Shown here in pieces: positions 213 through 14,337 of a DNA stretch of 14,337 bases. The stretch lies in UHGV virus genome UHGV-1688991. The stretch is one strand, 5' to 3'. A program made the position numbers and the translations under genes. Under the pieces are notes generated by a model. The model did not search any database. It had not been told where the DNA came from and saw nothing but the letters and a program-made list of their open reading frames with translations. The DNA is from a virus. Position 1 is the first letter of the stretch; every line of letters starts with the position of its first letter.

Positions 213-1993
213 ATTCCAGTTCTTCCAATTCTTGTATACCCAACATCGTGAATTACATCAATTCCGGATGAACGAGTGTCGGTAACACTCATTCCTTGTG
301 GGGCACCTTTGAACTCAACGGTGATGGTTCCTTTCGGTTGAGTCGCCGTTCCCTGTTTGATCTGATAAGGGTTATATCCTGAACTGGCCACGCCTGTACC
401 ATACGCACCGTAACCGCCAGCCCCCCACTGCGCAGCGTTTGCGGCAGCAACCGTATCGCTGGCACCATCAGAGAACCACTCAATGATGGGCCTCAGCTTT
501 TCCCACATGTCCTGGAACCATTTCACGATTGGGCCCCAGTTATTGATCACCATCCCCAGCGGCGACCAGGCAAAAACTTTCTTAAGGAGTTCCCAGCCAG
601 CCTCAAAATAAGGACCAATGGTTTCCCAGAGTTTCTTAAAATAAGGTCCGACAACATCCCAGTTAGTGATAATTAATCCCGCAGCCAGGGCAATCGCCGT
701 CGCAATCATGCCAATCGGCGTCATCGACATGATCCTGCTGACAATACTGATGGCACCGCCAACGCCCATCAATCCCAGTTTCAGAATCGCAAGACCGGCA
801 GCAAGCCCGACGACGCCGCGAATAACCCGGGGATTTTCATCCGCAAACTTCGTGAATTTCTCCCCCAACTCCCCCAGCCATTGCGTGATATTTTTGGCGT
901 CACCAGAAAATGCGCCGCCAATAGCCGCAAGGCCGTTAGTTGCGGTCCCCGTCATTGCCTCCCACAGGTTGGACAGCGTACCAAGCTGGGCCTGAACACG
1001 TTTATTCAGGCTGGCCTGTTTATTCATCTTCTGCTGGATCTGATCGTAGCCATCCTTTCCTTTATCGATTAGTGCATTGACCACCTGAAGGGTTTCGGCA
1101 TCATCACCAAATATTGCCTTAAGTACACCTGTTCGCTTAACGTCGGTCAGTTTTCGCAGCTTTGCCAGTTGCCTGAACATGTTATCAAGACCGCCAAAAC
1201 TTCCTTTGCCGTCAGTAAAATCGAGCTGTACCCCGAGTTTCTGGCGGGCCATGATTTTATTGACGTCCCTGATTTTCTTAACGCTTAATCCGGACTGGAT
1301 AACTTTTCGCAGGGCATTACCTGCCGACTCCCCGTTCATCCCCATCTGATCCATCATGACGCTGATGGGGGCAAGGCTCTGTGCAGCCTGAAGACCGTCC
1401 TTGTTCACCATCTTCAGAACAGAACTGGTTTTAGTGAAGAAGGACAACATGTTGGTATCGTCAACGCCCAGATAAAACGCCTTCTGGATAGTGTCGAACA
1501 GCCCCATCATGTCTTCTGACGCCGTTCCGGTAGCATCCTGCATCTTTGCAGCAAACTCAGCAGCCGCTTCCGGTGTTTTTTTCAGTTGTACCGCAAGATA
1601 AGCTGTCGCTTTACCCACACCGCCAAGAATGTTTTCTGCCGGGATCCCCTGACGCACCAGCATCTGCATCATGTTCTGGAAATCAGCCGTTGTACCGGGT
1701 AGCTGGTTACCCAGGCCAATAGCCAGTTTATTGATGTCCTGAAAGCTCTTTCCAACCTCGCCATTCGCATCCATCATGGCGACTTTCAGCCCGGTGGCGG
1801 CGTTTTCCTGATCGGCATAAGATTTCAGGGAAAGCGTCAGACCCGCTGCCAGTCCGCCACCAAGCGCCAGCCCACCCTTTGACGCTTCTTCCGCCTGGCG
1901 TTTAAATCCCCGGATTTTCTTTTGCATTTTCGACAGCGCGGGAGAAAGCCTGTCGACACCGGTGATCAACGCCTTAAGCTCAAATTCAGCCAT
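203..1993 (-). CDS. Phage tail tape measure protein
   Basis: 596 aa; Ala/Gly/Met-rich helical N-terminal part, hydrophobic segments near residue 400, Gly/Tyr-rich C-terminus. Sits directly after the chaperone/frameshift gene, as in contractile-tail modules. SD AGGAGA lies 9 nt upstream of ATG 1993. Relatively short for a tape measure, so may be truncated. Confidence 0.75.
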   Translation of the reverse strand: MAEFELKALITGVDRLSPALSKMQKKIRGFKRQAEEASKGGLALGGGLAAGLTLSLKSYADQENAATGLKVAMMDANGEVGKSFQDINKLAIGLGNQLPGTTADFQNMMQMLVRQGIPAENILGGVGKATAYLAVQLKKTPEAAAEFAAKMQDATGTASEDMMGLFDTIQKAFYLGVDDTNMLSFFTKTSSVLKMVNKDGLQAAQSLAPISVMMDQMGMNGESAGNALRKVIQSGLSVKKIRDVNKIMARQKLGVQLDFTDGKGSFGGLDNMFRQLAKLRKLTDVKRTGVLKAIFGDDAETLQVVNALIDKGKDGYDQIQQKMNKQASLNKRVQAQLGTLSNLWEAMTGTATNGLAAIGGAFSGDAKNITQWLGELGEKFTKFADENPRVIRGVVGLAAGLAILKLGLMGVGGAISIVSRIMSMTPIGMIATAIALAAGLIITNWDVVGPYFKKLWETIGPYFEAGWELLKKVFAWSPLGMVINNWGPIVKWFQDMWEKLRPIIEWFSDGASDTVAAANAAQWGAGGYGAYGTGVASSGYNPYQIKQGTATQPKGTITVEFKGAPQGMSVTDTRSSGIDVIHDVGYTRIGRTGMGG

Positions 1994-2404
1994 GTGTGCG
2001 TTTCTCCTGCTCTATCCTGTTTGCCTGACTGACCAGCAAGGGAATTTCACTGATCGGCATATTCAGCAATTCGAAGGGATTAATGCGCCAGTAACTGGCG
2101 CAGTCAAAGAAGCGATCAGTGAGGTATTCAGCCGTCAGGCCTGGAGGAAAAAACCGGCCACAAGCCACGCCGCTGCATTCAGGTCTGCCGGAGACATCTG
2201 GTCGACAGAGCTTTGCGGCACTTTCGCCAGCCGCACGATGTATTTCGATACCACATGCGCCAGAAGTCTGACGGACTCATCCTGATTCATCTGGTAGGGA
2301 TATCCCAGCTCGCGGACATCTTTCCCGGTGGGCTCATCAAACTCCAGTACGGAGAGTGTCTCGCCATGAGCGGTAATCGGTTTCTTTAACTCAAGCTCTT
2401 TCAT
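1986..2404 (-). CDS. Tail assembly chaperone, predicted -1 frameshift fusion product
   Basis: A second ORF in the -1 frame overlaps the chaperone 3' end and stops at 1986-1988, just before the tape measure ATG. The slippery heptamer T_TTT_TTC lies exactly in the overlap. Confidence 0.5.
2135..2404 (-). CDS. Tail assembly chaperone (short, unshifted product)
   Basis: 89-aa ORF between tail tube and tape measure, the conserved chaperone position. Its ATG overlaps the tube stop (2404-2406). Confidence 0.65.
   Translation of the reverse strand: MKELELKKPITAHGETLSVLEFDEPTGKDVRELGYPYQMNQDESVRLLAHVVSKYIVRLAKVPQSSVDQMSPADLNAAAWLVAGFFLQA
2147..2153 (-). promoter_or_regulatory. Candidate -1 ribosomal frameshift slippery heptamer T_TTT_TTC
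   Basis: Plus strand 2147-2153 is gaaaaaa, so the minus strand reads TTTTTTC. In the chaperone frame the codons are GGT TTT TTC; the -1 frame continues as TTT TTT CCT CCA. Confidence 0.5.
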
Positions 2405-2760
2405 TACTGGTAATCCCCTTCTTCACCGTGGAACTCAAGATCGACCGTGCCTTCTTCGGCATTATGGTTCGCTTCGCCGTGCAGCCAGGCAGACGACAGT
2501 ACATAGACCTGACCGTTCGCCAGCTCGGCAGTGATGGTCATCTCATCAGACGAGGTGATTTTGCTCACCGGAAAATTCTTCGGCACCTTGAAGGTCCCTT
2601 TGACATAAGGTGCACGGTGAGTTTCCTTGCGGTCCACTGAACCGTCCAGGCCGATGATGTCATCATTGACCGTCCTGTTCATGGGCACCTCAATGCCGCC
2701 GGTCAGCGATAGCTGCTGACCGTCAATTTTGAAATAACAGGTTCCCCCGATACGGGCCAT
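2404..2760 (-). CDS. Phage tail tube protein (Mu gpM-like)
   Basis: 118 aa, directly downstream of the sheath gene with start overlapping the sheath stop. Size and position match tube proteins of Mu/SfV-type contractile tails. Confidence 0.75.
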   Translation of the reverse strand: MARIGGTCYFKIDGQQLSLTGGIEVPMNRTVNDDIIGLDGSVDRKETHRAPYVKGTFKVPKNFPVSKITSSDEMTITAELANGQVYVLSSAWLHGEANHNAEEGTVDLEFHGEEGDYQ

Positions 2761-4256
2761 TATGCAGACTCCTCTGAATACTGAAGACGGAACTGGTTAA
2801 CCACGGCAAAGACACGCAACTGGTTAACATAGTCAGGCGGGAACAGCGTGTTCAGGCGGTTCGGATCGCTGGCATCACGCTCCACAACCAGGTACTGCTT
2901 AAACAGTTCGTAGTTTTCCACAATCCCCGCACGCTCGAGCTGACGGTAGGTTGCCAGCAGTTCCCCTTTGATCACCGCCGGGGTGACAATCGCCTGACCG
3001 GGACCAAAGCGGGTACCGTCACTGGCAAGCTTGTGACGCCCGTACTTACTGGTAATGACGGATTTCAGTTTGCGCAGTACATACGCGCTGGTATGCAGTG
3101 TCTCACTGTCGAGGTAGCTGTTATCCGCAACCCCGTAAGCGTTTTTCCTGTACGTGGTGACATCACGCTGAGTGCGCAGTACCCCACTTTCGACATACGC
3201 CGTTGCCACGCCATGAGACAGCAGGGTCTGTTGTTCGGTCATCGTGAACCGTTTCCCCTTCGGCGCAGGCAGCATACCCACCAGCTCACCGGTCTGCGTG
3301 GGACGTGCCGGATCGTTGCGAATAAACACCGCTGCGCGGGCGGTACGGCTTGCCGCCAGCTCGTCAGCAGGCGTCTGGGTCTCTTTTTCGTACCCCGCCA
3401 GGGTAATGTGCTGCTGGTTAAACTGGTCACCTGCGGTCACCAGTTCTGACAGCGTGCCGATCTTTGCCGTATACACATGACCATACAGCTGACGCGCATA
3501 GCTCCAGCGACCGCTGGTATCGTTCATCTCGGTCACCAGCGTGTTAACGGAGGCCGTGTCGTTGAATGGCAGGCCGATATAATCAAACGGCTCATCCGCC
3601 ATTGCAGCCACCGCGCCGGTGAGAACAGGAGAGCCCGTTCCGGCGGTCCCCGTCGCCACGGCAATCTGTACGCCCGCTGGCAGCACTTCACCCCCACCAA
3701 AGCCGTAGTAATTGAGGCTGACAGGAATTTCATTCCCGCAAAGCCCCTTATGACGCGCGGTCAGTGTGACCACGCCAGCCGAAGATGAAGCTGTAAACGG
3801 CAGAGTCGGAACGGCATTGATGGCATCTTTGATACTGCTGGCAATCGTCGTGACGTTATCGCCGTTGGTCACCGGAGCCTGCACGCGGGTACGTCCCACA
3901 TAGACATTCACCGTGCCGCTTTCGGTTGCTTCCCCGGTCACCGTCAGCGTAACCGTTGCCGCCGCGCCTGTGGCTTCCGGAACGGCAATCACATACAGCT
4001 CACCAAACGGGTCGGTCTGGCGATAAGCCTCAACCATACGCGCCAGCTGACTTCCCGCACCACAAATCTGGCGTGCATAGTCTGCCGACGGCATCAGCAC
4101 CAGACTGTTGGCAACAATCTCTGCACCGTTATTGGCATGACCAATCAGCAGCGATGCTCCGCTGTCCTGTGCAGTATTCGCCGCCTGGTTATCCATTTCC
4201 GCATAAAACAGCGGAACCAGCGTATTCGACGGAATGGTGTTAAAGCTTATCGTCAT
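2760..4256 (-). CDS. Phage tail sheath protein (Mu gpL-like)
   Basis: 498 aa; size, composition and position upstream of tube match the contractile sheath family. SD AAGGTG lies 6 nt upstream of ATG 4256. Confidence 0.85.
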   Translation of the reverse strand: MTISFNTIPSNTLVPLFYAEMDNQAANTAQDSGASLLIGHANNGAEIVANSLVLMPSADYARQICGAGSQLARMVEAYRQTDPFGELYVIAVPEATGAAATVTLTVTGEATESGTVNVYVGRTRVQAPVTNGDNVTTIASSIKDAINAVPTLPFTASSSAGVVTLTARHKGLCGNEIPVSLNYYGFGGGEVLPAGVQIAVATGTAGTGSPVLTGAVAAMADEPFDYIGLPFNDTASVNTLVTEMNDTSGRWSYARQLYGHVYTAKIGTLSELVTAGDQFNQQHITLAGYEKETQTPADELAASRTARAAVFIRNDPARPTQTGELVGMLPAPKGKRFTMTEQQTLLSHGVATAYVESGVLRTQRDVTTYRKNAYGVADNSYLDSETLHTSAYVLRKLKSVITSKYGRHKLASDGTRFGPGQAIVTPAVIKGELLATYRQLERAGIVENYELFKQYLVVERDASDPNRLNTLFPPDYVNQLRVFAVVNQFRLQYSEESA

Positions 4257-4410
4257 TGGTGTTCACCTTTTTATTCACGCGCCGGATATCACCCGCTGCT
4301 TCACGGCGCAGCCAGTAGTTGTTCTCATCAACATTTCGCCCTTCGGCGGGCAAAAGGTCGCCGCGGGCAGGGTCAGGAACTGACCGCCCTTTAACAGGTT
4401 TCACAAACAT
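4239..4410 (-). CDS. Small hypothetical protein (56 aa) immediately upstream of sheath, possibly a DUF2635-like Mu-tail-module protein
   Basis: Below the ORF-track size cutoff; found by manual translation (MFVKPVKGRSVPDPARGDLLPAEGRNVDENNYWLRREAAGDIRRVNKKVNTNDDKL*). It fills the gap between the gp37-like and sheath genes. No strong SD. Confidence 0.35.
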
Positions 4411-4418
4411 GAAGATTC

Positions 4419-4979
4419 TCAGGAAGGAAGGGTTATTTCGGTGTGATGTTCGATATCGCCGTCAGGCCCGTTACCGGGATCGAGATAATCAACATCAATC
4501 GCCAGCGTTCGCAGTTCATCCAGACTGTTCAGGTCATCCTGCTGGCGGGTATCGTCTTCGGTCAGCTCGCTGATGACCGAAAAATCGAACTGATAAATCA
4601 GCTCATGACGATTCAGATCCAGCAGCGTGCCGCCGTCATAGGTAATCGGGTTACCGCACGCTTCCGGGTTCCAGCCCAGCAGGGCCTTAAAGAGCATCTG
4701 CCGGACATCGTCCACCACATCATACGAAGCAAACTGACCGCGCTCATCACGCCCGTTACTCAGTATGACAACCACGGAGAAACCCTCTTTCAGCTCCTGC
4801 CAGTAGTCGGTCTGGCTTTTGTTTTCTCCCGGAGAATCATCACCCGGTACAACATATGCCGCCGGGAGTTTCAGCTTTCCGACCTCCGGCAGATTTTTGA
4901 ACTGTGCCGCGCCTGCCACCCGGTTTTCAAAATACGGGCAGCGGGCACGCAGCGCAGCAATAACAGGCGTCAGTTTCAT
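4419..4979 (-). CDS. Phage virion protein, Mu gp37-like (DUF1834-like), putative neck/tail completion
   Basis: 186-aa acidic protein positioned between the head-completion genes and the sheath. ATG overlaps the upstream stop (ATGA). Family assignment is from memory. Confidence 0.55.
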   Translation of the reverse strand: MKLTPVIAALRARCPYFENRVAGAAQFKNLPEVGKLKLPAAYVVPGDDSPGENKSQTDYWQELKEGFSVVVILSNGRDERGQFASYDVVDDVRQMLFKALLGWNPEACGNPITYDGGTLLDLNRHELIYQFDFSVISELTEDDTRQQDDLNSLDELRTLAIDVDYLDPGNGPDGDIEHHTEITLPS

Positions 4980-5482
4980 CTGTGTCGTCGCTCCGGCTTC
5001 AGTGATTTACGTAATTCCCGCGCCAGAAAATAGCGTGTCCAGCTGCGGTTCTTTTCAAGAGTTTCCACCATAAAGTTATTACGTGGAGCCAGCCGCCAGC
5101 CGCTGCCACCGGATGCACCACGATGATGACTACGACGACGTTTTGCTCCTCCCCGGACACCAAAAAACAGAAATGCCGGATAGAAGTCACCAGAGATCAT
5201 CCGGTTCCCCTTCCCGTTGCGCTGGTTAGGGGCAATGCGTGTCATAAAACCGGCTCGCTTTTTACTGGCTCTCGGCACCATATAACCAATCGAACGAGCC
5301 AGGCGTCCGGTCTGATAACCGGGGTTTTCACCTGGTACCGACCGCGCACGGCGCATCACCAGCCGACGGGCATCACGCATATGACGCTGCCCAATCGTGA
5401 CAAACGCCCTCCGGACACGGGCGCGGTTAAAGCGCATCTCGGCGGGCTGCTGAACATCAACGTGAAAAAAGGGAGTCGCCAT
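4976..5482 (-). CDS. HK97 gp10-like phage tail-component protein
   Basis: 168 aa, strongly basic, in the conserved position after the head closure gene. SD GGAGG lies 5 nt upstream of ATG 5482. Confidence 0.55.
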   Translation of the reverse strand: MATPFFHVDVQQPAEMRFNRARVRRAFVTIGQRHMRDARRLVMRRARSVPGENPGYQTGRLARSIGYMVPRASKKRAGFMTRIAPNQRNGKGNRMISGDFYPAFLFFGVRGGAKRRRSHHRGASGGSGWRLAPRNNFMVETLEKNRSWTRYFLARELRKSLKPERRHR

Positions 5483-5867
5483 TGCTGCCTCCGTGACTCT
5501 GCCTACATTCGCCCAGCTCCGTACACTCCAGCAGCAGAAAGCGCCGCGCCCCGTTCAGATCACGCTGACGTTTCACCCGGTACACACTGTCATCACAGAC
5601 CACCTCATAATCAGCAGTGATCCCCCGGCGGTAACGAATGGTGATGTAATGGGTGATGGCGTCCCCGGTCTGCGCGGTTTCCTGCCAGGTGGTGGCACTG
5701 GTCTGGATAACCTTCGCCCATGTCCGGAACGTAACCGGGTATTGAGACTCCACGCCAAAGTTATCCGCGGGCATATCCACCCGCTGGCGGATCAGGACGC
5801 GTTTATTCAGTTCACCGGGGTCCGGCAGAATGTAGGTTGCGCTGGTCTGCGCCTGACGAATTTTCAT
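5457..5867 (-). CDS. Head-tail adaptor / head closure protein
   Basis: 136 aa, following the gp6-like connector; N-terminal ...DPGELNKRVLIRQ... resembles head-tail joining proteins. ATGA overlap with the upstream gene. Confidence 0.65.
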   Translation of the reverse strand: MKIRQAQTSATYILPDPGELNKRVLIRQRVDMPADNFGVESQYPVTFRTWAKVIQTSATTWQETAQTGDAITHYITIRYRRGITADYEVVCDDSVYRVKRQRDLNGARRFLLLECTELGECRQSHGGSNGDSLFSR

Positions 5868-6187
5868 TGCGGAAAGTACCTGTACGGGCCGACAAGCCAG
5901 CCAAAACTCTGCGGCATGTCGAGTTTCTCCACTTCCGTAACCGACGAGCGGTTTTCGTAAAAATGGCTGATAAGCATCAGCATCCCCAGACGAATATCAT
6001 CCGGCAGGTGCAGTCCGTCCGGGTCGCTGTCCGGAATGGTTTCATCCGGAGCATAGAGCTTCCGGTTCAGATACGTTTCCGTCCGCTTTTGCGCCGCACA
6101 GGCCAGCAGTTGCAGATGGCGGTCATCAGCATCGAAATCCTCATCCAGCCGGAGTTGGGCTTTAATCTCTTCCATTGTCAGAAGCAT
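5864..6187 (-). CDS. Head-tail connector protein (gp6-like)
   Basis: 107 aa; N-terminal MEEIKAQLRLDEDFDADD... is typical of the gp6-like connector family. Located after the major capsid gene. Confidence 0.7.
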   Translation of the reverse strand: MLLTMEEIKAQLRLDEDFDADDRHLQLLACAAQKRTETYLNRKLYAPDETIPDSDPDGLHLPDDIRLGMLMLISHFYENRSSVTEVEKLDMPQSFGWLVGPYRYFPQ

Positions 6188-6189
6188 AC

Positions 6190-6390
6190 TCAGCCCTCTT
6201 TACAGGTCGTGGCTTTTTTCTCTTTTGCCGCTTTACTGCTTTTTGCACTGATTCCGCGCTCTGCTAACCCGGCCTGAAGTGCAATCTCCTGCACACGGGC
6301 AGGAAGCGCCCCGTCGTCATACTCACCGGCCCGAATGACCTCAACACGCATACCGTCCGGTGACCATTTCAGATCTTGTTTCAGGATCAT
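6190..6390 (-). CDS. Hypothetical small protein (66 aa) between capsid and connector
   Basis: Tightly packed: its TGA (6190-6192) lies 2 nt before the connector ATG. Lys/Ala-rich C-terminus. No family recognised. Confidence 0.4.
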   Translation of the reverse strand: MILKQDLKWSPDGMRVEVIRAGEYDDGALPARVQEIALQAGLAERGISAKSSKAAKEKKATTCKEG

Positions 6391-6439
6391 GATTCTTCAC
6401 CCGTCAGAACAGGGGGCGCGGTTCCGCGCCCATGAATGA

Positions 6440-7645
6440 TTACGCCGCTGCAATCTTCAGCAGTTTGATGGCCTGCGAATCGACCAGCATGCCGCCGGTG
6501 CGCTTGGTGGTATAAAAACCGACAAACGGTTTATTGGTGTACGGATCACGCAGAATGCGGGTACCGATACGGTCAACGATGGTGTAACCCCGCTTGAAGT
6601 TACCAAATGCAATAGCTTTCGCATCAGCGGCGATATCCGGCATCTGTTCGTTTTCAGCGATACCGTAACCCGCCAGAGAGGACGGTTGCCCCAGCTCCAG
6701 CCCCGGACGCCACAGATAGTTACCCTCGGTGTCTTTCAACAGACGGATGGCAAACAGGCTGTTGTTGTTCATCATGAACTTCGCGCCAGTGCGGTGTGCC
6801 TTACGCAGCGTGTAAATCAGTTTGATAATGGCGTCTGCGGTCACCGTCGTCGCTTCACCGGATACAATATGCTGAAGTTTACCGAACGCACGAACCTTAT
6901 CGGTTTCATCGGTGGATTCATACGCCAGGAACCCTTTTGGCTTCTTGGTGCCATCACCGGTGGTAAAGGCAATTTCTTCCTGTTCAGCAAATTCGGTCGC
7001 CAGCTCGCTGTTGATCCAGGCCTCCACGTTGAAGAAGGCATCATCCAGCATTTTCTGAGTGGCCTGCGGGTTACCGTAGATTTCCCCCATGAAAGGTTCA
7101 ATCAGTCCCAGTTTTGAGGTGGCAGTCTGGGAGCGCGCGTCAGTCTCGCCCACCCATCCGGAAGCCGTGCCGCCCAGATTCACCAGTTTTTTGTAGTCGG
7201 AACCGCCAACGGTGATCACCGTGGCTTCCTGACGCATCACCACTTCATCTTTCAGCAAGGTCAGAATGTTGCGATCCAGCGCTTCCGGCACGGCATAGCC
7301 GCCGTCTTCATCGGTGCCCACCTGTAATGCCTTGCGCTCCAGATCGCGCAGACCATCTTCACGGCCTTTACGCAGGAAGCCCACAAACGCTTCTTTATGC
7401 TCGGTGGTCAGTTTATTTTGCGCACCACCTGCCGGACGTTTCAGCTCAAGCAGCTCTTTTTCAAGATCGCTTTTGAGGTTTTCCAGCTCGCTGAGTTTCC
7501 CGTTCAGGGTTTCCACCTGCCCGGCAAGTTTGCCTTTTTCCTGCTCAATCGCATCCACGCGCTTGTCGTTCTTTGCCTTGAAGTCGTCAAACTTCTGCTG
7601 CAGCTCCTGCGCGACCTGTTCCACATCTTTAATATCAACCGCCAT
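6440..7645 (-). CDS. Major capsid protein, HK97 family, with N-terminal coiled-coil delta domain
   Basis: 401 aa; charged helical N-terminal ~100 aa followed by a capsid-fold-sized domain. SD AGGAGA lies 6 nt upstream of ATG 7645. Directly follows the prohead protease. Confidence 0.9.
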   Translation of the reverse strand: MAVDIKDVEQVAQELQQKFDDFKAKNDKRVDAIEQEKGKLAGQVETLNGKLSELENLKSDLEKELLELKRPAGGAQNKLTTEHKEAFVGFLRKGREDGLRDLERKALQVGTDEDGGYAVPEALDRNILTLLKDEVVMRQEATVITVGGSDYKKLVNLGGTASGWVGETDARSQTATSKLGLIEPFMGEIYGNPQATQKMLDDAFFNVEAWINSELATEFAEQEEIAFTTGDGTKKPKGFLAYESTDETDKVRAFGKLQHIVSGEATTVTADAIIKLIYTLRKAHRTGAKFMMNNNSLFAIRLLKDTEGNYLWRPGLELGQPSSLAGYGIAENEQMPDIAADAKAIAFGNFKRGYTIVDRIGTRILRDPYTNKPFVGFYTTKRTGGMLVDSQAIKLLKIAAA

Positions 7646-7659
7646 CGTATTTCTCCTGA

Positions 7660-8310
7660 TTAGAAGTTCAGATTTTTCAGTGCATTCAGTGCAGAGCCCA
7701 CATCCTCAGCGTCGCGCAGGGACAGTGCGCCATAGCCCCCGGCCATGAATGCTTTGGCCTGGGTACGGGAGAGTCCGACATCACGCAGGACTCTTTCGAT
7801 TTTTTTCTGTTCAGGGATTTCCCCGCGGGCCAGCGCGTTCTTGACGTCGCTGATCCGCGCCTCGTCGTTAGACGGAAACGTCACCAGACTGACTTCCCAG
7901 AGGTCGATTTCTTTCAGCAAAAAGGCTTCTTTCGTCCGGTCGTATTCCCAGTCTTTCAGGACGTACCCAATAGAAAGGCCGGTTAACGAACCGGCCTTCA
8001 TGTGTGCATGTGCGCGTTTTGCCAGGGGATCATCATCAATGAGCAATCGCCCCCTGACGTAAAGCCCGACATCGTCTTCCTTCATTTCGGTGTAAACACC
8101 GATGGGCTCATCCATGCGGTGCTGCCAGAGCAGCGCAGGTAACGCTTTTCTGTCACTCCACGCCCGCAGGGAAGCAGCAAATGCCCCGGACATCACCACA
8201 TCATCGTGGCTGTCCTTTACACCAAAGACGGAGCCATACCCTTCAAACTCACCGGAGTCACTGACAGATTTCAGACTCAGCGGTACATCAAGACGTTGTT
8301 TCGTCTGCAT
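7660..8310 (-). CDS. Prohead maturation protease, HK97 family
   Basis: Motifs ...GYGSVFGVKDSHDDVV... and position between portal and capsid. Start revised to ATG 8310 (SD AAGGA 8 nt upstream); the track's ATG 8346 has no SD and overlaps portal by 59 nt. Confidence 0.85.
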   Translation of the reverse strand: MQTKQRLDVPLSLKSVSDSGEFEGYGSVFGVKDSHDDVVMSGAFAASLRAWSDRKALPALLWQHRMDEPIGVYTEMKEDDVGLYVRGRLLIDDDPLAKRAHAHMKAGSLTGLSIGYVLKDWEYDRTKEAFLLKEIDLWEVSLVTFPSNDEARISDVKNALARGEIPEQKKIERVLRDVGLSRTQAKAFMAGGYGALSLRDAEDVGSALNALKNLNF

Positions 8311-9529
8311 TGGCGTTATCCTTCTGCTTACCGGCTTTACTGCCATCGGAGGGTTTCGTGGTCATGTTCATCGGTGTGAGATAGACATCCCCACCGGGAC
8401 GCGGATTCATATCTTCCAGGTCGCGGCAGTCATTGGGAGAGTAAATTCCCCAGTTGATACCGGTGGCGTAGGCTTCAAAACGGGACTTCATATCCCCGCG
8501 CAGTAACGCCCCGGCGTTAAATTTGGCGTAATAAACGCCCTGCTTACTTTTTCGTACCAGTCCGGTGTTGATCCGCTGCTCAATGCGGGTCAGATACGGC
8601 ACCAGTGAATAGTTGATAAATCCCAGCCCCAGCTCTTCGATATTGTTGAAGGTGGCGCGATCGGTGTTCTGCACCATGTGCAATGGCACCCGGAACAGAC
8701 GACAGATTTCTTCAAGCTGAAACTTGCGGGTTTCCAGGAACTGGCTGTCCTCGGCGTTCAGCGCCATCGACTTCCAGTCCAGCCCCATCTCAAGGATCAT
8801 CGGGCGGTGAGCATTGCCAAGCCCGGTGTGACGCTCCTCAAAATCTTTCTTCAGGCGCTCATAAGCCTGATCTGACAGCGTCTGCTCTGTACGCAACACA
8901 CCCGACGTCACCGCGCCATTGCTGAACAGTCTGGCCCCGTGCTCTTCGGTCGCTGCCGCCAGCGATATTGCCTCGCGGGCATAGGCGATGGGATTCAGCC
9001 CCACCAGTCCGTCCATCGTCAGCGTGCGCACATGCCAGATATCCTCCTGGCTCAGTACATCCGTGGAGCCATCCGGGAATGTGACCTGATAGACCGGCTC
9101 CCAGCTACTGTTAAGCTTCGGTACCACACAGCCGGGATCGACGGGCAGCAGTTCAGCCACTTCGCCAAATGCTTTCACTTTGTAGGCGTAAAAGTTTCCC
9201 CGCAGGCACAGACAGGTGACCACCAGCTCCCAGAACTCCTGCGGCGTCATATAGCCATTGGGATGCGTGGAGATCAGCTTATGCAGACGTTCACCAGTGG
9301 CTCTCTGCTTCAGGCTGCCGTTCAGGTGATACAGGTTGCAGGGCAACATCCCGACCGACTCCGCCAGCACCCTGACACAGGAAAAAACCGCCGTCAGTCG
9401 CATGGCCCGCTGGCTGCTGATCTGCTTTCCGGTATAGGTGTCGTAGGACAACCCGATAGCATCCGCCAGCTCTGCTGGCGTGGTCACCGGTGCGTCACTT
9501 TTTCGTTGAAATAATCCCGAAAAGAACAC
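8288..9529 (-). CDS. Portal protein, HK97 family
   Basis: 413 aa; characteristic size and position after terL. GTG start at 9529 with SD GGAGGT 5 nt upstream. Confidence 0.9.
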   Translation of the reverse strand: MFFSGLFQRKSDAPVTTPAELADAIGLSYDTYTGKQISSQRAMRLTAVFSCVRVLAESVGMLPCNLYHLNGSLKQRATGERLHKLISTHPNGYMTPQEFWELVVTCLCLRGNFYAYKVKAFGEVAELLPVDPGCVVPKLNSSWEPVYQVTFPDGSTDVLSQEDIWHVRTLTMDGLVGLNPIAYAREAISLAAATEEHGARLFSNGAVTSGVLRTEQTLSDQAYERLKKDFEERHTGLGNAHRPMILEMGLDWKSMALNAEDSQFLETRKFQLEEICRLFRVPLHMVQNTDRATFNNIEELGLGFINYSLVPYLTRIEQRINTGLVRKSKQGVYYAKFNAGALLRGDMKSRFEAYATGINWGIYSPNDCRDLEDMNPRPGGDVYLTPMNMTTKPSDGSKAGKQKDNANADETTS

Positions 9530-9711
9530 TATTTACCTCCGCCGACAGACGACTGTGTACGGTCGAGATATCGCGCCACCAGCCACGACCAGAACAGGCA
9601 CAACGCCCCGGCAACAACAAACCCCGCCGGGGGATAAATCAGCCAGGCACCATACGCCAGCAAAAGCGCCCCCAGCACGCCCACCAGAGGCGCGAGAATC
9701 AGCATGATCAT
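9529..9711 (-). CDS. Small hydrophobic membrane protein (60 aa, two predicted TM helices)
   Basis: [67 protein letters not shown] lies 4 nt upstream of ATG 9711. Its TAG overlaps the portal GTG by 1 nt. Confidence 0.5.
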
Positions 9712-9722
9712 AATTACCTCAG

Positions 9723-11456
9723 TTAAAGCGAGCGGATCCCATAGGACTCAATGTGGTCAGACAGCGTGTCTTCTTTCTCGTACAGCATGGCTCTGCCAAC
9801 CGCCATAATCAGCGCAACTGCACCATCGATTTTGTTTTCCGCCTGCTCTTTGACGGGCTTCACCACATCATCGTTACCCGGAATGGTTTTGCCGACCACG
9901 TTGCCGATACACCAGGTCATGATGGGATTGCCATCATGATGAAAGCGCCCCGATTCAATTGCCGCTTCCAGCTCTTTCATCGGGTCGGACATGTTGGTGT
10001 AGTTCTGAATGATAGTGATGGGGTTCAGGTCTTCATCAGCAAGGTCATGTGACAACCCGGTCGCCCCGAAGGGGTCGATGGGTGACTCACTGACCGGGCT
10101 GATTTTGTTCGCCGCTTTGGCCTCCTCGAGGATGTAGCGATAATCCACCTCCGCACCATCGGTAACGGTCAGAACGCCCATTTCCACCCATTTCTGAAAG
10201 CGTTCGGCTGTCCGTCGATCTTCATTTTTCTCGACGCTGTACACCGTGTCATACGGTACCCAGAAACGCGGGGCCACACTGTAGTAATGCGTTTTACCGT
10301 CAATCTCGCGGGTATAAAGTCGCGCCATGCTGTTCATATCCAGCTTACGCGCCAGGTCAAAGGCCAGAATGCACGGCTGCCCCTCGAACTGCTCAAGGGT
10401 CAGTGATTTATCCTCGCAGCTCTGCCAGCTTACCAGGTTGAAATACGCCGAACGCGCCGACACCCAGATATTGAGGTGTTTTGTTTTAAAGACGTTTGCC
10501 AGACGGGCGTTATTTTTCGCACGCTGTTGCTGACTTAACAAAAACTCACGGTAAACCGACACCCCGATATTCGGGTTGGCTTTTTCCAGCACCTGTGGGT
10601 TGGTCCAGTCGTCACCTTCGTCAACGGTATAGATGATCCCGAACAGTTCATCGTTAGGCACCGAGCCGTTGAGCATCTCGATGACTTCCCGCCGCTTGTC
10701 GTAGCACGGCCCCTCAATGTTGTACCCGGCGGTGGTGATGGCCCACATCAGTGGCTGACGTCGCGCCCCCATCCCGGTAAGCATTGTGGTATAAAGCGCA
10801 TCGGTGGCATGCTCGTGATATTCATCAACCACGGCACAGTGGGGTGATGAACCATCACCGGGGTTGCCGATCAGCGGTTCAAACCGCGCGCCATCCTCCG
10901 GACGGTTCATGTTTGAGGCGTTAACCTCAATCCCGAACGCTTCCGTCAGCATGGGTGTGCGTTTACACATCAGTCGCGCCGGGCGAAAGACTTCCCACGC
11001 CTGTTTCTCTGTCGTGGCACCGGAATACACTTCCGCGCCAAACTCGTTATCACAGGCAAAACAATACAGGGCAACACCGGCAGAGATTGCCGATTTGCCG
11101 TTCTTACGGGGAATTTCGGTATACACCTCCCGGAAGCGGCGCAATCGGGTGCCTTTATTGACCCAGCCAAACGCACAGCAGATCACAAATAGCTGCCACG
11201 GCTCCAGCGTGATGGGCATCCGTTTGAATGCCCACTCACCCTTGGTATGCGGCAACAGCTGAATAAATTTGGCGGCCCGTTCAGCCAGGTCCTTGTCGAA
11301 GCGGTAACGAAACGACTTACTTTTTTCCGCCATCAGGTCATCAAGATGGCGCTGGCAGGCCTGAATCACAAACTGGCAGGCCACAATCTTTCCGCGCACG
11401 ACATCCCGGGCATACTGATTTGCAGCATTTACGTTGGGGTAAGATTTCCGGCTCAT
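9723..11456 (-). CDS. Terminase large subunit
   Basis: 577 aa with Walker A-like PRKNGKS, Walker B-like AVVDEYHE and C-terminal nuclease-type acidic motifs. ATGA overlap with terS. Confidence 0.92.
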
Positions 11457-11947
11457 GATTCGATAATTTTCAGAAACGGGTTAGTGGCTTTCTTCTGCCC
11501 CGCCAGGCCAATCAGACGCTGGCGGCTGCTGGGGTCGAGTCCGAGCATTGCCCCCGTGCTGCTCATCTCGGACTCCTGTTCTTTTTTGGCGGTCAGCTCC
11601 GGATTTTTGACCCTGCCGCCCATTGCACCGGTGATGGTGTTGCCCTGTATGGCAATATTTTTCACGGCACGTCGCCAGAACTCATAGGCCACGCACCACC
11701 GCTCAAGCACCGCGAGGTCAGTCACGCACAACAGGCCCTGACCGCAGAGTTCTTTGGTTGTCAGTTGCCACATGATCGTGGCGAGAGGGAGATTTTCTTC
11801 TGCGAACCACTCCGGTGGCTCAACACCTTTGATGGGCGTAAAAACAGGTTCATCTTTATTCAGGGCTCGCTTGCCGGGGTTTCCGGCCAGCGCCTTGCGC
11901 GCCGTTGGCTTGGGGCGACGCCCGGAACGCCCCACCGTTCCAGCCAT
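11453..11947 (-). CDS. Terminase small subunit (P27-family-like)
   Basis: About 164 aa, basic N-terminus ([13 protein letters not shown]), immediately upstream of terL. Start revised to ATG 11947 with SD AGGAG 8 nt upstream; the track's GTG 11956 would fall on this SD. Confidence 0.8.
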
Positions 11948-12072
11948 ATGCGGCACTCCTGGTTAAATTTCATTTTTCGCGGGTATAAAAAAACGATGGG
12001 GCGGGCAGTCCGGAAGACGTCAGGCCGCAGGGATTTGACCCGCCCCTCCCCTCAGGCAGTTGAGAATTATTA
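11948..12072. other. Candidate cos / packaging-initiation region
   Basis: The only non-coding gap between HNH and terS. It has a GC-rich core with inverted GGGGCGGG (11999-12006) and CCCGCCCC (12040-12047) arms, next to an AT-rich tract (11975-11995). The position matches HK97-type cos sites. Confidence 0.35.
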
Positions 12073-12423
12073 TCACTTCAACCGTTCACGGGCCGTCTTC
12101 GCCTTATGACACGGCCAGCACAGGCTCTGCAGATTACTGTCGGCATCAGAGCCGCCATGCGCTTTAGGGATGATGTGATCAACGGTTTTCGCTTCACGCA
12201 CCACACCGGCACGCAGACATAACTGACACAGGCCTTTGTCACGCTTCAGCACACGCGCGCGGATAACGTCCCACTTCGAACCATAACCGCGCTGGTGACG
12301 GGACTGACCTGGCTTGTATTGCCTCCAGCCTTCGCTTTTGTGGCTTTCACAATAGCCTGACGGATCTGTGGTGGTATGGCGGCAACCGCGAACACGGCAG
12401 GCTTTTGGGATTCGTGGCGGCAT
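12073..12423 (-). CDS. HNH endonuclease, terminase-associated
   Basis: 116 aa; N-terminal Cys cluster (CRVRGCRH...C) and C-terminal DHIIPKAHGG...NLQSLCWPCH HNH motif. Positioned immediately upstream of terS. Confidence 0.85.
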   Translation of the reverse strand: MPPRIPKACRVRGCRHTTTDPSGYCESHKSEGWRQYKPGQSRHQRGYGSKWDVIRARVLKRDKGLCQLCLRAGVVREAKTVDHIIPKAHGGSDADSNLQSLCWPCHKAKTARERLK

Positions 12424-12835
12424 ATGTACTAATCTCCGATTTATCCAAATTTCACTGCCATAATGCCGACATTCTCTGCCATTATTGGCTCCGTTTATCC
12501 GTTAAAAGGGATATCAGTTAAGTTATCCCGTGTAGGGTATAAGCCATTGTCGAGACCACTCATTGAATGGTCTCTGCAATAACCGATGTCTTTCCATCAG
12601 TCCGCCACCACAAAGAATCTTTTTTGCCATAAGGCAGGAGGTTCATCTTTCAGTGGCTGCCAGTGTTATTTCCCCACTTACTGGCTTGGGTTGCTTCGTG
12701 GTACTGCCGTTAACTGGTGGCGCACAGATTTAGTTAAATCTGTTCTCGCATGATCCAGCTTTTACATACCCGGATTGTGGGGATGCAAATCACGGTTTCA
12801 TTATCAAGCCCACCAGTAGATGGGCTTTGTAATGG

Positions 12836-13093
12836 CTACTTCGCTTTTGCTTCCGCTCGCTTACGCCGGCGCTCTTCTTTCCTCTCGGCTTTTGCCATGT
12901 CCATGAATGCCTGCATGATCGAGTTCCGCATCATGTAGCTAACAAAGTGATGATTGACACAGCCGTTGAGGCGCAGCTGCTCGCCAAACTCATCCACCGA
13001 GGCCAATGCTTCCATCATGCCCTTCTCGCCTTTCATGAACTCTGAGAAGTCGCGCCCCGCTCTGGAGGCGCATTCAATAACACGATCACTCAT
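12836..13093 (-). CDS. Hypothetical protein (85 aa), translationally coupled to the KilA-N gene
   Basis: ATGA start/stop overlap with the upstream gene at 13090-13093. Highly charged C-terminus (ERKEERRRKRAEAKAK). No family recognised. Confidence 0.5.
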   Translation of the reverse strand: MSDRVIECASRAGRDFSEFMKGEKGMMEALASVDEFGEQLRLNGCVNHHFVSYMMRNSIMQAFMDMAKAERKEERRRKRAEAKAK

Positions 13094-13587
13094 CCCGGAA
13101 GCCCGGGGATCGTAATCTGCAGCTGGTTAGCCAGGGAGTTAATCTCAGCGACCAACACTGGCTTCGTATAGCGCCATGCTGCCAGCCCTTGTCCGCAGAA
13201 GCTCGCCATGTCTTTCTTCTGGTCAAACTCATGACATTTCATGTTGAGCTGCGCACTTAAGCTGTTGCGATGCTGAAGTTCTCCGGTGAAGTAGTCATCG
13301 AGGACTTTATAGGCCGCGTACTTGAACCCGGGGTTTAACCAAGCCGCATAATCGTAAGCAACAAACTTCCCGCCATATGTTCCACCGTGTACACCGCGCT
13401 CAGTAAAAACCACAGATTCGTGGTTTTTCTCCAGCTCGGCTAAGAACTCTTTGGTCTGCTTGTTTCGCAGGTAGTGGTAAGGCGATTCAGATTCACTTTT
13501 ACCACTGGCTTTCCACATATCAGTGAGGCAGATCATTCCTGATTCATCAACACGGATCGGTGTATTAAAAAGCGTGATTGCTTTCAT
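13090..13587 (-). CDS. KilA-N domain protein (antirepressor-like)
   Basis: The N-terminal ~100 aa match the KilA-N pattern (...ICLTDMWKASGKSE...RGVHGGTYGGKFVAYDYAAWLNPGFKYAAYKV...). Start set at ATG 13587 (SD AGGT upstream); the track's longer ORF from 13656 has no SD. Confidence 0.6.
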   Translation of the reverse strand: MKAITLFNTPIRVDESGMICLTDMWKASGKSESESPYHYLRNKQTKEFLAELEKNHESVVFTERGVHGGTYGGKFVAYDYAAWLNPGFKYAAYKVLDDYFTGELQHRNSLSAQLNMKCHEFDQKKDMASFCGQGLAAWRYTKPVLVAEINSLANQLQITIPGLPG

Positions 13588-13738
13588 AGCGTCTTTACCT
13601 TTTAGAAAGATGAGCCTGTTCGCACAGAAAAGCCGCCCCGAGATGGTCGCCACCATATACGGCAGTTCTCAGGCTCAACTTTCTGAAAGGCTCGGGTGAT
13701 GTAATATGCGCGTGAGATGCGCTGTGAAATTCAGATGT

Positions 13739-13762
13739 AAAAAAAGCCCCGCATCGCGAGGC
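13739..13762 (-). terminator. Rho-independent terminator downstream of Rz/Rz1
   Basis: The minus-strand RNA would form GCCUCGC-GAU-GCGGGGC (7-bp stem with one G-U pair) followed by UUUUUUU. It lies 33 nt after the Rz stop. Confidence 0.55.
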
Positions 13763-13794
13763 TCATTAAATGGACTTTGTGATTTGCAAAAAAA

Positions 13795-14337
13795 TTATTT
13801 CAGGCATTGCGTCCTGATGTATTCCTGCAGGTAGTTAACCTGCGCGGTTATCTTGTCGATTCCACTTCGGAGACGGTAATAATTGAGTTCAGCATCTGCT
13901 GTAAGTCCTGGGCTTTCTCCATCGCCCATGCCGCTGGCTCCGGTCGTTGACTTTGCACAGGTGGCGGCGACTTGCAGGCGCTTACGCCCAGCAGAAACAT
14001 CAGCACGGAGACTTTCGATAGTCGCGTTAGCATCAGCAAGCTCCTTTGTGTATCTTGCGTCGAGTTCTGCTACATCACGTTGACGCTTCCGCATGTCAGC
14101 GATGGTGGCGTTCGCCTTCTCCAGTTCACTGGCCTTGTTATCGCGCTGCTCTTTGTAGGCGATTGCGTTATCACGGTAATGATTAACAGCCAATGACAGG
14201 CAGAGGGCATTCTTCACACCATCCTCATCCACATGAGTCGTAATGTAATCGGCTACCTGCTTCAATTCATCACCAGCATTGCCCATTGCTACACCTACAC
14301 CTGCCTTCTTGATGATAGAGATGTCGTTGCCGCCATC
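13795..14337 (-). CDS. Rz: Chimeric ORF, 5' end outside window: Cof-type HAD hydrolase C-terminal segment fused in frame to an Rz-like i-spanin lacking its TM anchor
   Basis: From about 14200 downward the protein aligns with lambda Rz along its length ([10 protein letters not shown]...YTKELADA...GRKRL...). Upstream, the same frame reads [45 protein letters not shown], the C-terminal motif of Cof/YidA-type HAD phosphatases. The frame is open to the window edge. Confidence 0.6.
13848..14033 (-). CDS. Rz1: Rz1-like o-spanin lipoprotein, embedded in the Rz frame
   Basis: In the +1 frame inside Rz. Signal peptide with lipobox (LLGVSAC) followed by a Pro-rich region ([13 protein letters not shown]). 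ATG 14033 has SD AAGGAG 7 nt upstream. Confidence 0.7.

Follow-up and report, generated by a model that had tools for sequence, protein, structure and literature searches.

The window analysed here, by which we mean the whole 14,337-nt stretch of the viral genome UHGV-1688991, carries near its right end a lipoprotein gene of the Rz1 type inside an Rz gene that lacks its membrane anchor. An earlier note on this DNA described an intact Rz1, an Rz that had lost its anchor, and the absence of holin and endolysin, and proposed that an orphan outer-membrane lipoprotein might have been retained for some non-lytic role or might be a remnant in decay. The question raised by this locus is whether the broken Rz gene reflects an event in a living phage or the way in which the contig was put together.

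We examined the Rz1 gene itself by ORF calling and translation, Pfam, PHROG, and exact protein matches. The gene lies on the minus strand at 13848..14033 and encodes 61 amino acids and a stop codon, with the ATG at 14033..14031 and the stop at 13850..13848. A Shine-Dalgarno sequence, AAGGAG, was read directly at 14041..14046 (minus strand), 7 nt upstream of the ATG and within the Rz codons T-K-E. A TTG at 14039, which would give a 63-aa product, was rejected as the start, because the ATG has AAGGAG at 7 nt and is the start used in public records. The product matched Pfam PF06085 (Rz1) with an E-value of 2.2e-20 and 72.5 bits against a cut-off of 27.9, as well as PHROG 3198, "Rz-like spanin" (E 9e-29). 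An identical 61-aa protein is present on 524 public contigs, where the annotation reads "Outer membrane lipoprotein Rz1" or "Rz1 family lipoprotein". Since the Pfam, PHROG, and exact-protein matches agree, the ORF is not a chance one. Scanning Rz1 and Rz against NCBIfam yielded no meaningful family, and no NCBIfam model matched Rz1. Judged from its sequence, the gene at 13848..14033 is an ordinary embedded o-spanin Rz1, already catalogued in public databases.

The lipoprotein signal was assessed by a rule-based check of the PROSITE PS51257 type. Codons 1-19 (14033..13977, minus strand) encode the predicted signal peptide, and the next codon (13976..13974, minus strand) encodes the predicted lipidated cysteine, Cys20. 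The results showed that Rz1 satisfies the rule, with R4 and K7 in the first seven residues, an uncharged hydrophobic core (VLMFLLGV), and the lipobox V-S-A-C ending in Cys20, which fits the consensus [LVI][ASTVI][GAS]C as quoted in PMC6139136. The residue at +2 is Lys, not Asp, and would be compatible with sorting to the outer membrane. The mature part has 42 amino acids with five prolines, including PPP at residues 23-25. The ATG, the AAGGAG Shine-Dalgarno sequence, the lipobox cysteine, and the proline-rich part listed in the earlier note are thus all present; they lie on the minus strand, which the note did not state, and the prolines are fewer than in lambda Rz1.

We then compared the gene with lambda Rz/Rz1 (PMC5295617, PMC6139136). 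As in lambda, Rz1 is wholly contained in Rz in the +1 frame, and AAGGAG, a 7-nt spacer, and the ATG occur at the same site of Rz (…YTKELADA…). Both Rz1 proteins have a 19-residue signal peptide ending in a lipobox with Cys20, followed by a mature part with a proline motif and then AW.M…LN.II..SE, and both Rz proteins have coiled-coil regions and a C-terminal Cys. In the 459-nt Rz gene of the relatives, the ATG of Rz1 is at nt 221 and its stop ends at nt 406, so that Rz1 spans ~0.48 to ~0.88 of the Rz length as computed from these relatives; typical embedded spanins start at ~0.4-0.5 and end at ~0.9-1.0 of the i-spanin gene length (PMC6139136). The mature Rz1 differs from its lambda counterparts in several respects. 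It is only 44% identical over 39 residues to the lambda-type RzoR, it has five prolines in 42 aa whereas lambda Rz1 has 10 in 40 aa (PMC5295617), it carries PPP in place of the penta-proline PPPPP, and it has no equivalent of the second cysteine of lambda Rz1, C29. Besides the lipidated Cys20, the mature Rz1 has no cysteine, and Rz keeps two (…AATCAKS… and …RTQCLK). If covalent dimers form at all, the i-spanin would have to supply the cysteines by itself, a point relevant to the general role proposed for spanin disulfides (PMC6139136). Closer matches were found among other phages: the Rz1 proteins of coliphages HK75 and CUS-3 and of many P22-like and SfV-like prophages of E. coli and Salmonella fall in the 90%-identity cluster of the window's Rz1, and the gene order is the same, with holin, endolysin, Rz/Rz1, and KilA-N. 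Compared with the Rz1 genes of HK75, CUS-3, and these P22-like and SfV-like prophages, the gene itself is no different, and only the upstream break sets the window apart.

To assess the conservation of Rz1, we used 80 related IMG/VR phage contigs (L012-L091). The Rz1 ORF is exactly 61 codons long in all 80 and starts with ATG in 79, and the 16-nt string upstream of it, ACAAAGGAGCTTGCTG, which includes AAGGAG, is identical in 73. The amino-acid sequence found in the window is the commonest variant (31/80). In one relative, the Rz1 start codon is ACG, not ATG. Another joins a lambda-like signal peptide (MRKLKMKLCALMLPLAVSAC) to a mature Rz1 of the window's type, a sequence hybrid that suggests recombination inside the overlapping genes.

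The earlier note had proposed comparing the conservation of the two overlapping frames across relatives. We therefore obtained pN/pS by the Nei-Gojobori method, summing across 44 haplotypes of the shared DNA. With haplotype pairs that are phylogenetically non-independent, the ratio over the mature part of Rz1 was 0.18 in the Rz1 frame vs 0.83 in the Rz frame, while over the Rz1 signal peptide it was 4.5 in the Rz1 frame vs 0.10 in the Rz frame. The values are reversed between the two regions, indicating that each stretch is constrained mainly by one of the two proteins. By these ratios, the mature Rz1 is under purifying selection. In lambda Rz/Rz1, sensitive and silent domains were likewise reported to be complementary (PMC5295617), in agreement with this pattern. 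Of the two outcomes that the note had named as refuting its proposal, neither occurred: a lipoprotein signal is present by the PROSITE-type rule, and the frame is undisrupted in the relatives. Yet neither result addresses whether the truncation of Rz in the window is real. Moreover, the relatives are intact phages, and therefore the selection points to a working spanin gene and says nothing about the retention of an orphan.

To locate the break in Rz, we aligned the frame enclosing Rz1 with its relatives. This frame extends over 13795..14286 and matched Pfam Phage_lysis (Rz, PF03245) with an E-value of 2.8e-39. Its phage part, assigned by Pfam, PHROG, and alignments, is the 3' part of the Rz i-spanin gene at 13795..14204 (minus strand), 410 nt that comprise residues 18-152, the stop codon, and 2 nt of codon 17. 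This remnant covers positions 18-154 of the PHROG 13 profile, and in a protein comparison it was 99% identical to a 152-aa E. coli "lysis protein" (P0004). In the 459-nt Rz gene, position 14204 is nt 50; the window lacks the 49 nt before it, where most of the N-terminal transmembrane domain is encoded. The alignment of the relatives to the window ends exactly at 14204 in 63 of the 80 IMG/VR contigs, at 14202 in 11, and at 14206 in 2. All 80 relatives keep the N-terminus of Rz, 79 of them from residue 1 and one from residue 13.

We next placed the lysis genes in their phage context. From 399 to 14204, the window runs colinear with many E. coli prophages, at 96-97% identity, and the range becomes 96-98% when Shigella phages SfII, SfI, and SfV are included. 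The order on the minus strand is Rz/Rz1, a KilA-N/ORF11CD3 protein, an 85-aa protein, an HNH endonuclease, and the small and large terminase, followed by portal, S78 protease, HK97-type capsid, connectors, sheath, tube, and tape measure. The window thus represents 14.2 kb of a temperate E. coli phage of the SfV/SfII type, with an HK97-type head, a contractile tail, and a lambdoid lysis cassette, and its packaging, head, and tail module is apparently complete. The KilA-N/ORF11CD3 gene (13090..13656, minus strand; Pfam) follows the lysis cassette in this phage group and serves here as context, being no part of the spanin.

The same region was then followed beyond the break in other genomes. The colinear prophage of E. 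coli 042 continues with the rest of Rz (annotated as "lysis protein"), a GH24 endolysin, a lambda-family holin, and the antiterminator Q, and holin and endolysin stand upstream of Rz in all colinear E. coli prophages examined. In all public contigs with the same KilA-N protein, a complete or contig-cut Rz precedes this gene, accompanied by holin and endolysin where the contig is long enough. The Rz/Rz1-KilA-N module was found on P22-like, SfV-like, and Stx-phage backbones. Within the 14,337-nt window, neither the ORF list nor Pfam revealed a holin or endolysin ORF, as the earlier note had stated; read as a loss of these genes, the statement is not supported, since every relative examined has them upstream.

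The DNA to the right of position 14204 proved to have another source. By Pfam and DNA matches, 14205..14337 (minus strand) comes from the gut anaerobe Segatella/Prevotella (Bacteroidota), where it belongs to the 3' part of a gene for a Cof-type HAD-IIB hydrolase; the last 9 codons of this gene are missing. The fragment matched Pfam Hydrolase_3 (E 4.9e-13) and continues open and in frame into the Rz remnant. Positions 14203-14337 are identical at 134/135 nt (99.3%) to an isolate contig of Segatella sinensis (L010) and to gut-metagenome contigs, and a Prevotella MAG is equally close. In the S. sinensis isolate, the HAD gene runs uninterrupted for ~266 codons, and the matching segment is its 3' end. 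A protein search with the HAD fragment returned a 98%-identical product in metagenome assemblies only. The metagenome contigs with this HAD gene also carry OEP, SusC-like TonB-dependent receptor, and SusD-like genes, and thus have a Bacteroidota gene neighbourhood; the GC content of the Segatella contigs is ~43-45% vs 54% for the window. Separately, we observed that the Segatella HAD gene forms two overlapping ORFs (187 and 70 aa) in several gut-metagenome contigs (L003:3310-4064, L006:3093-3847) and one ORF in the S. sinensis isolate (L010:418-1398); the split may stem from a frameshift or pseudogene in certain strains, or from faulty assembly.

A three-way alignment and the BLAST end-points defined the junction. 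The window follows Segatella up to …AATGCCCTC and then phage Rz from TGCCTGTCATTGGCT…, and the only overlap is the dinucleotide TC (minus strand) at 14203..14204, which is common to phage Rz and the Segatella gene. The switch at 14203/14204 is abrupt, from 99.5% identity with E. coli phage to 99.3% identity with Segatella, with no gradient of divergence. The break in Rz therefore coincides exactly with the switch to DNA of another phylum, and Rz residues 1-17 and everything upstream of them are replaced in the window by Segatella DNA. The earlier note was right that the window lacks the Rz anchor, as only residues 18-152 are there; as a biological loss, the claim is not supported, given the switch to Segatella DNA and the full-length Rz of the relatives.

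To determine whether this junction occurs elsewhere, we searched several collections. No E. coli match beyond 14204 was found in 5,426 complete genomes, even with a sensitive word-11 blastn. A 28-mer across the junction was absent from genome_contigs (one genome each of 185,579 species), from viral_contigs (2.9 million viral contigs), and from metagenome_contigs (241 million records). When the 180-aa HAD-Rz fusion was compared with 5.8 billion proteins, the best 120 of 7,201 matches (E <= 1e-10) were all plain Rz without a HAD domain, and an exact look-up of the 180-aa product gave no record. Contigs carrying the window's KilA-N protein were ordinary E. coli or Salmonella prophages and short contigs, none of them with the junction. 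We also considered whether the HAD fragment might be an enterobacterial host gene (yidA- or ybhA-like) fused to Rz by a deletion of the lambda-gal type; this was rejected, as there is no E. coli match past 14204 and the DNA is 99% Segatella.

These results bear first on a deletion within the host, in which the early region, holin, and endolysin disappeared from a defective prophage along with the beginning of Rz, leaving an orphan Rz1, retained for a non-lytic role at the outer membrane or decaying. Such an arrangement has a real precedent in the Rac prophage of E. coli K-12 MG1655, where the annotation lists rzpR as a pseudogene of 300 nt with an intact rzoR (61 aa) inside it. The likeness is close: an intact gene for a 61-aa Rz1-type lipoprotein inside a 5'-truncated Rz, in a prophage without holin and endolysin. 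In addition, Rz1 and its Shine-Dalgarno sequence are undamaged in the window. However, in Rac the DNA next to the truncation comes from an E. coli prophage and the arrangement is stable in the K-12 chromosome, whereas the window has a Segatella flank and a unique junction. A deletion in the host would be expected to leave an enterobacterial flank, yet the flank is 99.3% Segatella with no E. coli match, and the junction was common to no other assembly searched. The rest of the window, at 96-98% identity to the functional phages SfII, SfI, and SfV, is no decayed remnant, and the intact Rz1 reflects selection in complete phages rather than retention as an orphan. The origin of the flank essentially excludes an in-host deletion, and we regard this explanation as extremely improbable. 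The proposal of an orphan lipoprotein, kept or decaying, is accordingly not supported, given the Segatella flank and a junction seen in no other assembly searched.

A second explanation accepts the junction as real and assumes a very recent event between phyla, in which a coliphage fragment entered a Segatella chromosome or Segatella DNA entered an E. coli prophage at the 2-nt microhomology. Both partners inhabit the human gut, illegitimate recombination at 2 nt of microhomology is mechanistically possible, and the join is in frame. Against this, both sides are ~99% identical to their own lineages, so that the event would have to be extremely recent, and no second case appeared among the 185,579 species genomes, 2.9 million viral contigs, 241 million metagenome records, and 5,426 E. 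coli genomes. Furthermore, the foreign DNA amounts to only 133 nt at the extreme end of the window, which is shorter than one short read. An event of this kind is in our estimation highly unlikely. There is an even slimmer chance that a 14-kb coliphage segment and a Segatella gene were joined in a living cell such that Rz1, without a functional partner, is read from a HAD-Rz fusion transcript.

The explanation that we prefer, and consider very probable, is that the right end of the window is a technical chimera, in which coliphage Rz/Rz1 is cut by a Segatella tip of 133-135 nt. The junction most likely arose from a chimeric read or a misjoin at a contig end in a gut metagenome assembly. The foreign 133-135 nt sit at the extreme end of the window, and a segment shorter than one short read would be a typical signature of a chimeric contig tip. 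Two observations count against a chimera. With only 2 nt in common, the two sources could not have been merged by k-mer collapse in a de Bruijn graph, and the artefact would have to come from a chimeric read, from a ligation product, or from an error in scaffolding. The HAD-Rz fusion is in frame, though this has a 1-in-3 probability by chance. With a chimeric tip, the peculiarities of the locus follow from the contig: holin and endolysin are absent because the phage sequence of the contig breaks off 49 nt inside Rz, and the loss of the Rz anchor is an artefact because the contig jumps to the DNA of another organism. In our view, the HAD-Rz fusion exists in no cell.

In the real phage, Rz1 would act as it does in lambda, where genetics established the need for Rz1 in outer-membrane disruption and its complex with Rz (PMC5295617, PMC6139136). 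By homology, Rz1 would be translated from its own Shine-Dalgarno sequence inside the late transcript, exported, lipidated at Cys20, and sorted to the outer membrane, where it would bind the periplasmic C-terminal part of the inner-membrane Rz. After holin and endolysin have removed the peptidoglycan barrier, the Rz-Rz1 complex would fuse both membranes and complete lysis. With the anchorless, cytoplasmic HAD-Rz fusion as written in the window, the spanin complex could presumably not form.

Because the contig is of mixed origin, inferences drawn from the right end of the window, such as gene loss, a fusion protein, or an orphan gene, are unsafe. The main value of this analysis is a quality flag on the contig; Rz1 itself is a textbook embedded o-spanin that databases already name. 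The annotation of the colinear E. coli prophages deserves mention in this connection. PGAP/RefSeq annotates only the outer "lysis protein" (Rz), without the embedded Rz1, at L001:4387-4845 and L113:15419-15856. As RefSeq/PGAP and NCBIfam both miss the embedded gene, readers of the annotated genomes would not see Rz1.

Three further observations concern the phage part of the window. First, a mosaic boundary is present at 13583: positions 13583-14204 are 99.5% identical to one phage contig (L016), and the adjoining KilA-N region (12793-13583) is only ~93-94% identical in the best relatives. Second, a consensus scan detected a 9-bp GC-rich hairpin followed by TTTTTTT at 13744..13764 (minus strand), in the gap between Rz, whose stop lies 30 nt upstream, and the KilA-N gene; by its sequence it looks like a terminator within what is usually one late operon. 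Third, the matches to the genomes of SfII, SfI, SfIV, and SfV begin at or next to position 1 of these records and reach window positions ~12014-12073. An HNH endonuclease gene beside the terminase genes is a usual arrangement in HK97-like cos phages, and the end of the phage genome (cos) is probably located between the HNH endonuclease gene (12073-12423) and the small terminase gene (11453-11956).
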